A stretch of 64,000 nucleotides of DNA. Origin: a virus (taxonomy: Duplodnaviria; Caudoviricetes). Each line of letters begins with the position of its first letter. Position 1 is the first letter of the stretch. Positions 4,046-8,104 of the stretch are shown here, piece by piece. A program made the translations under genes and the position numbers. Under the pieces are notes generated by a model that was not told the origin of the DNA, ran no database searches, and worked only from the letters and a program-made list of their open reading frames with translations. The stretch covers positions 1 to 64,000 of IMG/VR virus record IMGVR_UViG_3300044652_000032; one strand, 5' to 3'.

Positions 4046-4273
4046 ATGAGTACCGGCATAGAATTACTGCGCGGAACGGTCAAGTGGTGGAGGGACGACA
4101 AAGGCTACGGCTTCATCACGCAGGAGGACGGCACCGAGATATTCGTGCACTACACGGGCATAGTCGGCCAGCCGGGCTACCGCACGCTCAGCACGGGCGA
4201 CCGTGTAGAGTACTTCGTGGGCGAGAACGAGAAAGGCCCGTGCGCCGAGGGCGTCATGGTGGTGAGGAGGTAG
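4046..4273 (+). CDS. cspA: Cold-shock domain protein
   Basis: GTVKWW..DKGYGFI (RNP1), IFVHY (RNP2), KGPCAEGV. Confidence 0.92.
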   Translation: MSTGIELLRGTVKWWRDDKGYGFITQEDGTEIFVHYTGIVGQPGYRTLSTGDRVEYFVGENEKGPCAEGVMVVRR

Positions 4274-4456
4274 ATGCATGAGGCGCGGGGTACTGTGGGT
4301 GGGTGCGGTTTTTCTGGGAAGCATCGGTGCGTGTGCCGTGCTATCACACGAAGAGAGTATGCCGCCACTGACGCCTGAGCGTGCAGTCGGCACGGTCTTC
4401 CTCGGGTTGGCGCTCGTCCTGATGACGTTGTGCTTGGCGCAGAAGGGGCCGAAGTG

Positions 4457-4633
4457 ATGCGCGTAGTCCCGCTGTGGATAGTCGCCATCGGGTTGGGCGT
4501 AATGGCCGTGCTGGTGGTCGCATCCCCGCGACATTATCCCGCCTTAGACGCCGCCGACGTGTGCAGCGCCGTGTTCGCTACAGGCGCTTTCGTTCTAATA
4601 GCAATAGCAGTAAGCCAGAAGGAGAACAAGTGA
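4457..4633 (+). CDS. Small membrane protein
   Basis: Two hydrophobic stretches, TGATG coupling on both sides. Confidence 0.5.
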   Translation: MRVVPLWIVAIGLGVMAVLVVASPRHYPALDAADVCSAVFATGAFVLIAIAVSQKENK

Positions 4634-4941
4634 TGACGAAAAAGATTTACGCACCCTTGAAGGACACGGTTTACCTCAAGGAGATCAAGCGCACGGAGCA
4701 GCAGACGGACGCCGGACTGGTGCTGGATGAGCGCAGCAGGACGCTGGACGACCCCCAGTACGAGGTCGTGGCCGTGGGGCCGGGCCGCCGGACGGAGGAC
4801 GGACGCGGCAACGTCCCCGTGGACTTGGAGAGGGGCCAGCGCGTGGTGCTGCTGCGGATGGCCATCCCCAACCGGATGGATGTGGACGGCGAGGCGATCA
4901 CAATCGTCAAGGAGACGGATATAGCGTGCGTCGTCGGCTGA
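4633..4941 (+). CDS. GroES/Cpn10-like co-chaperonin
   Basis: PLKDTVYL, mobile loop QTDAGLVL, EVVAVGPGR, IVKETDIACVV. Confidence 0.85.
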   Translation: MTKKIYAPLKDTVYLKEIKRTEQQTDAGLVLDERSRTLDDPQYEVVAVGPGRRTEDGRGNVPVDLERGQRVVLLRMAIPNRMDVDGEAITIVKETDIACVVG

Positions 4942-4955
4942 GGCGAAAAAAGGAC

Positions 4956-4984
4956 TTTACAAAAAAGAAAATTTTTGTTATCGT
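4956..4984 (+). promoter_or_regulatory. Sigma70-type promoter of the Y-RNA/HNH/Ro60 operon
   Basis: TTTACA (4956-61), 17 nt, TATCGT (4979-84) with extended TG; AT-rich island. Confidence 0.7.
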
Positions 4985-5001
4985 GTTTTTCGCCTTCAAA
5001 C

Positions 5002-5012
5002 AGTTCTTTGAC
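5002..5012 (+). promoter_or_regulatory. boxA-like antitermination site
   Basis: AGTTCTTTGAC immediately before the RNA cluster resembles rrn boxA. Confidence 0.4.
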
Positions 5013-5138
5013 TTTCGAGGCCATGGACGGAGCGTACATGCGATAGCTCATTTGGCAGAGCATCAGCCTATCAAGCTGAGGGTAATCGGTTCAAATCCGA
5101 TTCGCGACCAAAATGGCTCGGTCAACTCGCCTCGGAAA
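5013..5138 (+). ncRNA. Y-RNA-like RNA 1 with non-permuted tRNA D/anticodon/T arms
   Basis: Terminal stem CGAGGC 5016-21/GCCTCG 5129-34; D arm GCTC-ATTTGGCA-GAGC; anticodon arm TCAGC-CTATCAA-GCTGA; T arm ATCGG-TTCAAAT-CCGAT; acceptor stem only 4-5 bp. Confidence 0.7.
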
Positions 5139-5144
5139 CCTTGT

Positions 5145-5248
5145 GACGGTGTTGCCAAGCAACGGGCATACATGCGCTGACCTTCTAAGTCAAGAAGCAA
5201 CCCGGACTCAGTTCCGGGAGCTACGCCCGTCGGACTCGCGACCCCGTC
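5145..5248 (+). ncRNA. Y-RNA-like RNA 2 with an Arg(UCU)-like anticodon stem-loop
   Basis: Stem GACGGtGTTGC/GCGACcCCGTC; ACGGGC/GCCCGT; TGAC-CTTCTAA-GTCA; CCCGGA/TCCGGG hairpin; shares scaffold motifs with RNAs 1 and 3. Confidence 0.6.
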
Positions 5249-5262
5249 CCTACGTTCAAGAT

Positions 5263-5402
5263 AGGGACGCCAGCAGACAGCATACACGCTCGAAACCTTC
5301 GGGTTTCATTCTTGGTTCGACTCCAAGGTCCCGCTCCATACTTATGCGGGACTAGCCAAACGGTAAAGGCAAGCAACAGTAGCCGACTGCGCTCGCGTCC
5401 CT
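5263..5402 (+). ncRNA. YrlA-type Y RNA (circularly permuted tRNA mimic)
   Basis: Terminal stem AGGGACGC/GCGTCCCT; order variable arm, T arm CTTGG-TTCGACT-CCAAG, closed acceptor stem GTCCCGC-TCCATACTTAT-GCGGGAC, D arm TAGCC-AAACGGTAAA-GGC; close to a Ro60-like gene. Confidence 0.85.
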
Positions 5403-5426
5403 TTTACGTTTCCACTGCTCCCCGCA

Positions 5427-5981
5427 ATGGCACAGAAAACTAAACAGCGATTCTACCTAGCGCGGTACCGCCGCGCGCCGGACGTTGTCCCGGCGCTGAG
5501 CGACGTCGGCGACAGGCTGACAATAGCCGGATTGGTCTTCCAAGGCATGGGCGAGACCCTCGTGCTCCTGTTGCCGGGCTGCGACCCCGCCGTGGCTCCG
5601 ACCTACGCGCAGCCCGACGCGGAAGAGTGGTCGGAGATCATAAGGCAGACGGACAACGCCGAGTGCTGGGTGCTCGACCCCGACCACGGCAAGGTGCTAC
5701 ACCGCAAGGCACGGTACGCCCTCAGCGGTGAGGTGCAGCAGCGGGTTTGGGCGCGCGACGGCTTCTACTGTCGGTACTGCCACGCCGCCATGGGTCAGGT
5801 GCTGATGACGGTTGACCACTTCGTTCCCTTGGAGAAAGGCGGTGCGAACGATGACAGCAACTACATCACGGCTTGCCGCCGTTGCAATAAGCTGAAGGGT
5901 AGCCGCGACCCCGAGGAGTTCTGCCGCACCGAGGGCTACAACTACGATAATCTTGTAGCTTACCTCGCTCTCTTCAAGTAA
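5427..5981 (+). CDS. HNH endonuclease with ~100-aa N-terminal extension
   Basis: RDGFYCRYC...TVDHFVP..KGG....NYITACRRCNKLKG. Confidence 0.9.
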   Translation: MAQKTKQRFYLARYRRAPDVVPALSDVGDRLTIAGLVFQGMGETLVLLLPGCDPAVAPTYAQPDAEEWSEIIRQTDNAECWVLDPDHGKVLHRKARYALSGEVQQRVWARDGFYCRYCHAAMGQVLMTVDHFVPLEKGGANDDSNYITACRRCNKLKGSRDPEEFCRTEGYNYDNLVAYLALFK

Positions 5982-5993
5982 GGAGGCCGACTG

Positions 5994-7502
5994 ATGGCGG
6001 AAGTTACCGCATACACACGTAACAAGTTGGTGGCGTCGCTGCTGCAGATAAAGCACGGCGACCTCTCCTTGTACGAGCCGGAGGGGCTGGCTGCGGCCAA
6101 GGCGGACGCCGACCTCTTGGGTCACTTCATAGCGTGGAACGCCCTGCGGGGTAAGGTGCGCGACGCGCGCGTCGCCTTGCCCGTCATAGCTCTCCGGGGC
6201 ACGCAGCGCGAAGACCGCGATCTGGCCGAGAACGCCGTGGCGCATCTGCTGAAGCTGGATCCGCGCGAGCTGCTCCGCGCCTACACGTACTCCACGCAGT
6301 TATCGAAGCGCGGGCTGACCATCACGGGAGGCCACCGCCGCCTGCTCGAAGTGGGGCTGCGCCGCTACCTCGAGGTGAGGGAGGACAACGCGCGGTGGTG
6401 GGACAGAACGGTCTTGCAGCACCGCCGACCGATGAAGTTCCTTTACCGCGCGGCGCACAAGCGTCCGAGCGCGCGGGCGCAGCGCATCCTCTTCGACGAG
6501 GACTACCCGCGCACCTCCGTGTTCGCCACGGTCAAGGCGCTCCGCACCATGACGCCGCGCGAGGCTGCCGGGGCAATACTGCAGTACCAGATACCGTGGG
6601 AGGTGGCGGTCGGCTCGGTCGCCAAGGCGAAGGATCGTGAGGTGCTCCTCGCCCTGATCGAGGGGATGACCGGCAACCAGCTCATCACCAACTCGGCCAT
6701 GCTGCAGCGGCTGGGCGTGATGCAGGACGAGGTCTTGAAGGCTGCGTACGAGTCGGCGCTCGCGCGTGCTACGTCCTCTAGCAAGGTCGAAACCCTCAAG
6801 GCCGGACACGCGGCTGAAAAGTTGAAGGGGACGGCTGCAGGGGAAAAGCTGGCGGCCCTGCAGGAGCGCAAGAGCGCGCAGATGGGCACGATAGACGGCG
6901 ACTGGCTGGTGTTGGGCGACTGCTCGGCCTCCATGAGCACGAGCATCGAGGTGGCGCGGCAGGTTGCGGCGTTTATCGCCCAGCGCGTGGCCGGGGCGGT
7001 GTACCTCGTCTTCTTCAACACGCAGCCCACCTTCGTGGACGTGACGGGGCTGACGTACCAGCAGATTCTGGAGAAGACCCGACGCATAACGCCGCAGGGC
7101 GGCACCGCCATCGGCGTCGGGCTGGACTACATACTCAGCCGACGGCTGGTGGTGCAGGGCATAGCCGTCTGCTCGGACGGCGGCGAGAACCAGCACCCGG
7201 CCTTCGCGCCGACGTACCGGCGCTACTGCGAGCAGATGCAGGTGGAGCCGACCGTTTACCACTTCCACGTCCCCGGCGATCAGGACGTTTTGAGCCTGAA
7301 CTGTCGCAACATGGGCGTCCCTCTGGAGCAGTTCCCGATGGGCCGCAACGTGGACTACTACGCGCTGCCCAACCTCGTAGAGACGATGCGCGTCAACCGC
7401 TACGCGCTCTTTGACGAAATTATGAGCGTCGAACTCTTGACAATAGAGAAGGCGCTGGAAAGGAGGCCGAGCCATGAGCGAGTTCAGGCAGTACCGGCGT
7501 AA
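5994..7502 (+). CDS. Ro60/Rsr-like TROVE + vWA protein
   Basis: Helical basic N-terminal two thirds, vWA MIDAS (LVLGDCSASM, GGT, VCSDGGEN), ~500 aa, adjacent Y-RNA-like genes. Confidence 0.8.
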   Translation: MAEVTAYTRNKLVASLLQIKHGDLSLYEPEGLAAAKADADLLGHFIAWNALRGKVRDARVALPVIALRGTQREDRDLAENAVAHLLKLDPRELLRAYTYSTQLSKRGLTITGGHRRLLEVGLRRYLEVREDNARWWDRTVLQHRRPMKFLYRAAHKRPSARAQRILFDEDYPRTSVFATVKALRTMTPREAAGAILQYQIPWEVAVGSVAKAKDREVLLALIEGMTGNQLITNSAMLQRLGVMQDEVLKAAYESALARATSSSKVETLKAGHAAEKLKGTAAGEKLAALQERKSAQMGTIDGDWLVLGDCSASMSTSIEVARQVAAFIAQRVAGAVYLVFFNTQPTFVDVTGLTYQQILEKTRRITPQGGTAIGVGLDYILSRRLVVQGIAVCSDGGENQHPAFAPTYRRYCEQMQVEPTVYHFHVPGDQDVLSLNCRNMGVPLEQFPMGRNVDYYALPNLVETMRVNRYALFDEIMSVELLTIEKALERRPSHERVQAVPA

Positions 7503-7689
7503 GCAGATAGCCGAGTTGCGCCCCTACGTTGCGGGCGAGGACATAAGCAGCGTCAGCGTGTCGTCAACTGACCGCGCGAACGGGTCGCCCAAAGAGGGCG
7601 ACATGATAGCGCGCAACCCCAAGAACCACGCCGACCAGTGGCTGGTGGCGGAGCAGTACTTTCGCGACAACTTCGAACCCGCCGATTGA
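7474..7689 (+). CDS. Small conserved-type phage protein
   Basis: QYRRKQIAELRPY...GDMIARNP...WLVAEQYFRDNFE; AGGAGG SD. Confidence 0.65.
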   Translation: MSEFRQYRRKQIAELRPYVAGEDISSVSVSSTDRANGSPKEGDMIARNPKNHADQWLVAEQYFRDNFEPAD

Positions 7690-7716
7690 GCGCGTTCGAG
7701 AAAGGAGACAAGCAGC

Positions 7717-8034
7717 ATGATCACCATCAACATCCGCAGCGGGCCTGTGAGCGCCCTCTCGACCGAGGAGCTGGTCACGAGCGTCGCCTTTTTCGGACTG
7801 ATGGCCGACCGCATCCACGAGAACGGGCACGAGGTTCCCTCGGACATCCAGAGCCAGTTGCGGGCGTGCGAGGCCGAGCTGACGCAGCGGCTCCGCGCCG
7901 ACAAGGAGAAGCAGCTGGCCGTCGCCAAGGCACGGCTGGAGAGCCTGCTCACGCAGACCGAGAAGCGCAAGAAGACCGAGGCGGAGATCGCCGCGCTCGA
8001 GCAGGAGCTGGGCTACAAGAAGAACACCAAGTAG
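7717..8034 (+). CDS. Hypothetical coiled-coil protein
   Basis: AAGGAG SD; last gene before terminator. Confidence 0.65.
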   Translation: MITINIRSGPVSALSTEELVTSVAFFGLMADRIHENGHEVPSDIQSQLRACEAELTQRLRADKEKQLAVAKARLESLLTQTEKRKKTEAEIAALEQELGYKKNTK

Positions 8035-8060
8035 CCCCGCGCCGTGAGCCGCGACTTTTC

Positions 8061-8104
8061 AAGGGGGTGGGTCGTCCGTCGGTGACGAGCACCCCTTTTT
8101 GTTT
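8061..8104 (+). terminator. Intrinsic terminator
   Basis: AAGGGGGTG.../CACCCCTTTTT stem followed by T tract. Confidence 0.65.

Follow-up and report, generated by a model that had tools for sequence, protein, structure and literature searches.

How should an array of three small RNAs, each bearing a different part of a tRNA, be read when it stands upstream of a phage gene that the domain databases do not recognise? The locus in question occupies positions 4956-8104 of a window of 64,000 nucleotides (the whole stretch of DNA analysed, positions 1 to 64,000 of the IMG/VR record IMGVR_UViG_3300044652_000032). The window is part of the complete genome, 95,182 bp with terminal repeats, of an uncultured phage. 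An earlier note on this DNA had described the locus as a Ro60 operon with three Y-like RNAs on a common scaffold. The evidence set out below indicates, with a probability of about 0.8, that the locus represents a new and widespread phage branch of the known Ro60/Y-RNA system and not a new kind of system.

The protein at the centre of this reading is encoded at 5994..7502 on the plus strand and comprises 502 aa. It is not matched by Pfam TROVE (PF05731) and finds only weak sub-cut-off vWA matches, NCBIfam returns no match, and a PDB search with the single sequence yields weak vWA matches only and does not recognise Ro60. The PHROG family 'RNA-binding protein' is reached at E 1.7e-4, restricted to the vWA part. 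The AlphaFold model (predicted local distance difference test, pLDDT, 87.9) consists of a helical N-terminal part and an alpha/beta domain, and the top 12 Foldseek matches are all Ro60 structures with template modelling (TM) scores of 0.49-0.67 over approximately 500 columns. The leaders among them are the Ro60 proteins of phage phiLo (9kop/9l5y), Deinococcus (2nvo), Xenopus (1yvp) and human (9nen), with E 2e-9 to 5e-7 and TM 0.55-0.67, and Ro60 structures are the only full-length matches of the model. The residues of the MIDAS (metal ion-dependent adhesion site), D309, S311, S313, T371 and D395 (DxSxS...T...D), are intact and invariant across 37 homologs, and a profile of these homologs reaches human Ro60 with an E-value of 2.8e-5 over residues 83-418. 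The fold is TROVE plus vWA by AlphaFold and Foldseek, which upholds the Ro60-like assignment of the earlier note under the test by structure prediction that it had named. Judged by its model, a helical-repeat ring with a vWA domain, the 502 aa protein is a very diverged Ro60-type ring protein.

This protein belongs to a large clade of 412 clusters at 50% identity (E<=1e-30, representative search), within which the best 150 matches all fall; its closest relatives (P0001-P0010) are 57-66% identical. Outside viral and metagenomic contigs the clade is almost absent: of 185,579 species genomes only 6 are positive, all of them through binned contigs (L133-L138) that are assigned to genomes of WWE3, Clostridia, Terrimicrobiaceae and Acidobacteriaceae. 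The six contigs probably derive from phages and provide weak host hints only. Among GenBank phages there is no close homolog of the protein, and DNA similarity to phages is confined to the tRNA part. Two distant relatives, LR756511.1:285750-286853 (31% identity, in a 595-kb uncultured phage) and KX853510.1:184318-185160 (23%, in virus Rctr197k), may represent intermediate clades.

The three RNAs are encoded 0.6-1.0 kb upstream of the Ro60-like gene on the same strand: RNA1 at 5013..5137, RNA2 at 5145..5248 and RNA3 at 5263..5402. All three contain GCCA (5020, 5154, 5269), GCRTACAYGC (5032, 5166, 5280) and RCTCGC (5125, 5234, 5391), at precisely the coordinates that had been given for them. GCRTACAYGC has four exact copies in the 64 kb on both strands against approximately 0.5 expected by chance, and three of the four lie on the plus strand within 260 nt. 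The closing stems of RNA1, RNA2 and RNA3 pair over 9, 11 and 8 bp, respectively, and differ in sequence, so that the claim of terminal stems that diverge yet remain paired also holds. Related loci were sampled via the Ro60-like protein, which yielded 74 viral and 57 metagenomic loci, 92 of them non-redundant; a metagenome scan with the single protein gave no match and a second scan gave the 57. The closest metagenomic locus (59%) ends at the gene start, and the covariation of RNA2 and RNA3 is drawn from the wider family rather than from near relatives.

A scaffold scan of these loci gave 199 non-redundant units, whose consensus runs from the closing stem through YAC, the helix UGNNNNGC, N-UACAYG, an insert, an A-rich run, the helix GCNNNNCG and ACUY back to the closing stem. 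The shared part, or handle, is thus composed of a closing stem, a 3x4 internal loop (YAC / ACUY; in the window CA(UG) / RCUC), a second helix and the linker N-UACAYG. The closing stem is 7-12 bp long and covaries across the 199 units while its sequence is not conserved, and UACAYG is found in 93% of the scanner hits within the loci versus 12.5% by chance. According to the insert, the units fall into three classes, termed N, s and P, with an identical handle consensus in all three. The common scaffold of the earlier note and its three distal modules therefore both stand, the latter as conserved classes in approximately 80 related loci. A DNA-level inverted repeat or mobile element was considered and rejected in view of the covariation of the stems and of the G-U pairs that they retain on one strand.

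Class N accounts for 59 of the 199 units, RNA1 included, and presents a cloverleaf in native order. RNA1 aligns with positions 4-67 of the Rfam tRNA model RF00005 at 51 bits and has D, anticodon and T arms; ARAGORN assigns it the anticodon AUC in the anticodon loop CUAUCAA. Its acceptor stem has 5 bp, one of them G-U, and is followed by ACCA, and both of its ends run into the handle. RNA1 consequently falls short of a tRNA, which would have an acceptor stem of 7 bp, free ends and an anticodon that can be used. Nearly all loci with upstream sequence contain such odd 'tRNAs' with strange anticodons beside the Ro60-like gene, and the ends flanking each of them pair. A covariance model, R1, was built from 29 class N-type units, a search of the kind that the earlier note had suggested, and it has full-length matches above 60 bits in most related loci, all on the strand of the Ro60-like gene (98.7 bits for RNA1). 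Applied to the window, it matches the handle of RNA2 weakly (10.9 bits) and RNA3 only through the T arm. Over 80 distinct R1 sequences, 96.1% of the cells are paired and compensatory change is seen at 28 of the 29 pairs; the covariation value is 0.83 versus 0.18 in shuffles (0 of 500 as high) and at most 0.16 when the partners are slid.

The D and T arms of class N are highly conserved and the anticodon stem covaries, with a triplet that varies between phages. Between 0 and 9 contiguous pairs make up the acceptor stem; NCCA follows it in approximately 25 of 80 units and all seven pairs are present in 7. Some units have stop-reading anticodons and are labelled tRNA-SeC or tRNA-Stop by ARAGORN, with UCA in L010:876-1004, L019:1886-2016 and L045:2183-2314 and UUA in L009:5910-6040 and L055:1316-1443; the acceptor stem of the unit at L009:5910-6040 is complete, with 7 bp, and GCCA comes next. 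Where the acceptor stem is very short, as in L042:2237-2365 and L043:2368-2493, the acceptor 3' strand and helix 2 are separated by an additional hairpin with a GNRA cap (CCC-GAAA-GGG type), which results in a three-way junction.

Class s (69 of 199 units, including RNA2) is characterised by a short hairpin beginning at the YG of UACAYG. In RNA2 this is a 4-bp anticodon-like hairpin with a 7-nt loop (UGAC / CUUCUAA / GUCA), accompanied by a second hairpin. The loop has 7 nt in 50 of 75 units, and among these 50 hairpins its second position, equivalent to U33, is U in 34 (shuffle mean 8.8, maximum 17), and the full Y32-U33-R37 pattern is found in 22 versus a shuffle mean of 1.9.

Class P (71 of 199 units, including RNA3) is a circularly permuted tRNA that opens with a hairpin and the variable loop, continues with the T arm and a 7-bp acceptor hairpin, the loop of which often contains CCA, and ends with the D arm; 20 of its 22 predicted pairs show compensatory change. 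In RNA3 the first hairpin is capped by UUCG and the loop of the 7-bp acceptor hairpin opens with UCCA, with the T arm between the two and the D arm last. The permuted tRNA-like domain that defines YrlA RNAs is hence present in RNA3 and class P, and absent from RNA1, which keeps the native order, and from RNA2, which has the hairpin only. In many class P units (such as L046:1673-1815, L062:1958-2098 and L049:3069-3199) the initial hairpin, of 3 bp, is capped by an anticodon-like loop of 7 nt, and AGGUC, a normal variable loop, precedes the T arm. Because an anticodon-like hairpin and a variable loop stand ahead of the T arm, such units are permuted tRNAs with all their parts, in which the break lies between the D arm and the anticodon arm. 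The loop of the L049 unit, CUUCUAA, is the same as that of RNA2.

At least one unit is found on the Ro60 strand in 80 of the 92 non-redundant loci, usually as an array of 2-6, with an approximate median of three and a maximum of seven units, and 26 loci combine all three classes. The N-s-P order of the window is seen in four loci and is tied for first place with three two-unit orders that are also found in four loci each. The connection between handle and gene can be approached from the opposite direction as well. The exact 14-base handle word has 97 matches in IMG/VR, 19 of which include the full two-helix scaffold, and a Ro60-like gene lies in the fetched flank of 14 of these 19 in contrast to none of the 78 chance matches (Fisher p 4e-13). 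This co-occurrence in sequence databases is indirect and constitutes the strongest argument that the handle is likely to belong with the Ro60-like protein.

It is proposed that the operon encodes a Ro60/Y-RNA-type ribonucleoprotein from a very diverged and almost entirely phage-borne Ro60 clade. The handle would be the docking site of the Ro60-like ring, in analogy to the conserved Y RNA stem for Ro60; it bears a tRNA-derived head. In class N the head is a whole tRNA joined via its acceptor end, in class s an anticodon-type hairpin alone, and in class P, as in YrlA, a tRNA that is circularly permuted and attached through the D/anticodon junction. The heads would recruit to the ring host proteins that recognise tRNA, such as RNase P, the CCA enzyme, modification enzymes, polynucleotide phosphorylase (PNPase) and nucleases, or alternatively would gate the ring cavity; both possibilities are modelled on Yrn1, YrlA and the phiLo RNAs Yrl1 and Yrl2. 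Recruitment or gating via tRNA-recognising host proteins is regarded as the most likely mechanism.

Several observations weigh against this assignment. The handles in the window deviate from those of the family, with CA(UG) in place of YACUG and RCUC in place of ACUY, and helix 2 of RNA3 has two mismatches, with which a stricter scaffold scan misses RNA3; a relaxed scan finds it together with a false match at 4128-4296 in coding sequence. As the scaffold scanner yields approximately 0.1 false hits per kb per strand, the unit counts per locus are approximate. Some class N relatives with a full 7-bp acceptor stem and NCCA could be true tRNA precursors. Furthermore, the run of the existing Rfam YrlA model (RF02553, gathering score 69 bits) that the earlier note had recommended leaves both the region and the entire 95-kb genome unmatched at E<=10, and the motif GNCGAAN0-1G is absent from RNA1-3 and from the 5' handles of all 199 units. 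Since the RNAs miss both, binding by the Ro60-like protein is suggested by co-location and analogy.

The RNAs and the Ro60-like gene are separated by a gene for an HNH nuclease of 184 aa (5427..5981, plus strand; Pfam HNH E 7.6e-12). The protein has a conserved N-terminal half to which no family is assigned, predicted with low confidence (pLDDT <50 at residues 1-18, 20-31 and 77-95), and a C-terminal HNH part with four Cys, DH and N residues. An RNA-guided IscB or Cas9 nuclease was rejected, given that the HNH segment alone matches (45.7 bits against a cut-off of 175) and the protein is 184 aa long. Full-length homologs are present in 36 of the 92 loci, independently of RNA class, and in 22 of these the order is RNAs, HNH, Ro60. 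This patchy presence, the constant intergenic slot, which is typical of homing genes, and the lack of a Shine-Dalgarno site that its neighbours possess are all compatible with a selfish, free-standing homing endonuclease that sits between array and Ro60 gene and has no role in the particle. Such a history is nevertheless unlikely. In 23 aligned copies the HNH protein is full length, its N-terminal half is conserved and its catalytic and zinc residues are intact (D130, H131, N141, N154, C115, C118 and C150 invariant, C153 in at least 90%), and it diverges in step with the Ro60-like protein: the pairwise identities of the two correlate with r 0.79 and both average 0.58, although points from related sequences are non-independent. 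The correlation argues for long co-inheritance and against frequent homing. As HNH is present in only 36 of the 92 loci it cannot be an obligatory effector, and it is more likely to be an accessory partner of the Ro60-like protein.

The same distribution bears on a second alternative, according to which the array is a panel of decoys or sensors. Here the Ro60-bound RNAs would offer tRNA parts to host defence nucleases that cleave tRNA, and would either soak up these nucleases or report their activity, with HNH as the output nuclease. The bare anticodon-type hairpins of class s, with their U33- and R37-like loop positions, would suit this purpose, and the diversity of class N triplets among phages on a constant tRNA body could reflect host-specific targets. 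The phage is also devoid of tRNA genes and RNA-repair enzymes of its own: RNA1 is the sole ARAGORN tRNA call in the 95,182 bp, no ordinary tRNA gene is found, and a search of the whole genome for RtcB, RNA ligase and CCA-adding enzyme found none. However, an irrelevant anticodon would account just as well for the freely varying triplet, many of the triplets begin with A34 (AUC, ACU, AAU), are not used by bacteria and therefore mimic no host tRNA, and HNH is missing from 56 of the 92 loci. A panel of this kind is accordingly improbable, and its most elaborate form, in which the ring loads RNAs that display a whole tRNA, an anticodon arm and an elbow/acceptor half as bait or sensor for host tRNA-targeting nucleases and the co-evolving HNH acts as an RNA-recruited effector, appears very improbable.

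A third alternative holds that the units are tRNA-precursor cassettes. The handles would then be processing or storage signals, class N units would mature to working tRNAs, some of them suppressors, and the Ro60-like protein would serve as a chaperone or quality-control factor for phage tRNAs. The NCCA and complete acceptor stems of some class N units and the stop-reading anticodons described above are in its favour, as is the position of the module in most related contigs, where, unlike in this phage, it is embedded in large tRNA gene clusters. In addition, RNase P cleaves the YrlA of M. smegmatis, which then gains CCA (PMC4201824). Cassettes of this kind are very unlikely, however, as RNA1 combines 5 acceptor pairs with the anticodon AUC, the acceptor stem amounts to 0-3 pairs in many class N units, decoding is impossible for classes s and P, which are built on the same handle, and a single tRNA body bears all the anticodons, unlike tRNAs of different identities.

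The remaining elements of the operon, all of them on the plus strand, complete the list that had been drawn up for 4956-8104 (promoter-like site, boxA-like site, three RNAs, HNH gene, 502 aa gene, two small genes and terminator), every item of which is present. A sigma-70-type promoter-like site at 4956..4984 (TTTACA, 17 nt, TATCGT, with TG ahead of the -10) is located in an AT-rich island. Between it and the structured RNAs, 10 nt upstream of RNA1, lies GTTCTTTGA at 5003..5011, which corresponds to the core of the bacterial rrn boxA, a UGUUCUUUGA-like word. The boxA-like site is no isolated feature of the window, since 11 of 80 loci have the word RWUCUUUGA at a distance of 10-21 nt upstream of a unit (approximately one such locus expected by chance). 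It precedes the first unit of the array in 8 of 10 related loci and, in the window, RNA1, the first true unit. This recurrence would fit a co-transcribed array that is shielded from termination, as in rrn operons. One promoter and the rrn-type boxA probably drive a precursor that comprises the three small RNAs followed by the HNH, Ro60-like and two small protein genes.

The closing stem of RNA3 is followed by UUUUACGUUU (5398-5426). The HNH start at 5427 has no Shine-Dalgarno site and the next three genes have strong ones; partial termination or a separate control may take place in the stretch 5398-5426. Downstream of the Ro60-like gene, and overlapping its end, a small open reading frame (ORF) of 71 aa (7474..7689) has a strong Shine-Dalgarno site, belongs to no family and has no homolog in the related loci. 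The second small ORF (105 aa, 7717..8034) encodes a charged protein, probably a coiled coil; of the 74 fetched viral loci 20, identical copies included, possess a homolog, likewise downstream of the Ro60-like gene. The operon ends with an intrinsic-terminator-like hairpin (8061..8104; hairpin 8061-8098) that has a 9-bp G+C stem and is followed by the U run UUUUUGUUUG. Directly upstream of the promoter lies a GroES/Cpn10-like gene (4474-4941, plus strand; Pfam E 6e-12 over residues 60-154), the product of which has an N-terminal extension of approximately 59 residues. The other neighbouring genes match no Pfam family.

Overall, the family offers a natural dissection of what Y RNAs recruit and why the bacterial ones imitate tRNA, with three tRNA presentations on one handle. 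It comprises hundreds of sequence variants with clear covariation, so that the partners of each head are comparable on one protein, and its handle/protein pair is divergent enough from YrlA/Rsr to reveal general features of Ro60 recognition. It also uncovers a large Ro60 clade that domain databases have missed, and it shows many odd phage 'tRNA genes', with anticodons such as AUC, ACU, AAU, UCA and UUA, to be heads of Y-like RNAs. A literature search that did not extend to the two main reviews of bacterial Y RNAs found no paper on one handle with three tRNA wirings.

Among known systems, the permuted tRNA genes of red algae and some archaea share with class P the order T arm, acceptor 3' strand, CCA, linker, acceptor 5' strand and D arm, with paired ends. 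Those genes mature to working tRNAs through a splicing endonuclease and a ligase. In this phage no such enzymes are found, and the paired ends form the conserved handle.

The closest precedent for the wiring of RNA1 is Yrn1 of Deinococcus radiodurans, part of the Rsr/Y RNA/PNPase machine (RYPER), in which an anticodon-like arm stands, in native order, between T- and D-like elements (PMC4201824). Yrn1 has partial tRNA features, whereas RNA1 and class N have a near-complete cloverleaf, as the score of RNA1 on the tRNA model attests. The best structural match of the protein is the Ro60 of the Thermus phage phiLo, which likewise has two Y-like RNAs, Yrl1 and Yrl2, just upstream (PMC12135203; PDB 9KOP, 9L5Y), and for which host PNPase capture has been proposed (PMC12135203). 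The phiLo RNAs differ in that the motif CGAA, placed in a large bulge, served to define them, and no tRNA mimicry is reported for them; moreover, phiLo has no HNH gene, and the two Ro60 proteins share 17-18% identity in the structural alignment.

In bacteria, Rsr binds Y RNAs that are encoded nearby, and YrlA, which 22 phages carry as well, mimics a permuted tRNA whose acceptor stem is closed and which lacks an anticodon loop (PMC4201824; 10.1101/312249). All three bacteria studied have at least two Y RNAs, and YrlA and YrlB of M. smegmatis are cut from one precursor (PMC4201824). The earlier note knew of no array of this kind; the Rsr/YrlA and phiLo precedents (PMC4201824, PMC12135203) make a Y RNA array beside a phage Ro60 a known kind of thing. 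The locus shares with Rsr-YrlA/YrlB of S. Typhimurium, M. smegmatis and phages a Ro60-fold protein and several small RNAs that are encoded nearby on the same strand, here well within the approximately 4 kb that applies to YrlA. It differs from them in a protein that Pfam TROVE does not recognise and in RNAs that miss RF02553 and have a handle with YAC/ACUY, UG..CG and UACAYG and no GNCGAAN0-1G. Two further wirings, the whole native-order tRNA and the bare anticodon hairpin, are mounted on the same handle, and many class P relatives retain a separate anticodon-like hairpin that YrlA does not have. In RNA3 the likeness is nevertheless exact, as the order of V region, T arm, closed acceptor and D arm in YrlA is precisely its layout, and the UAC word ahead of the V region resembles the conserved YUAY of YrlA.

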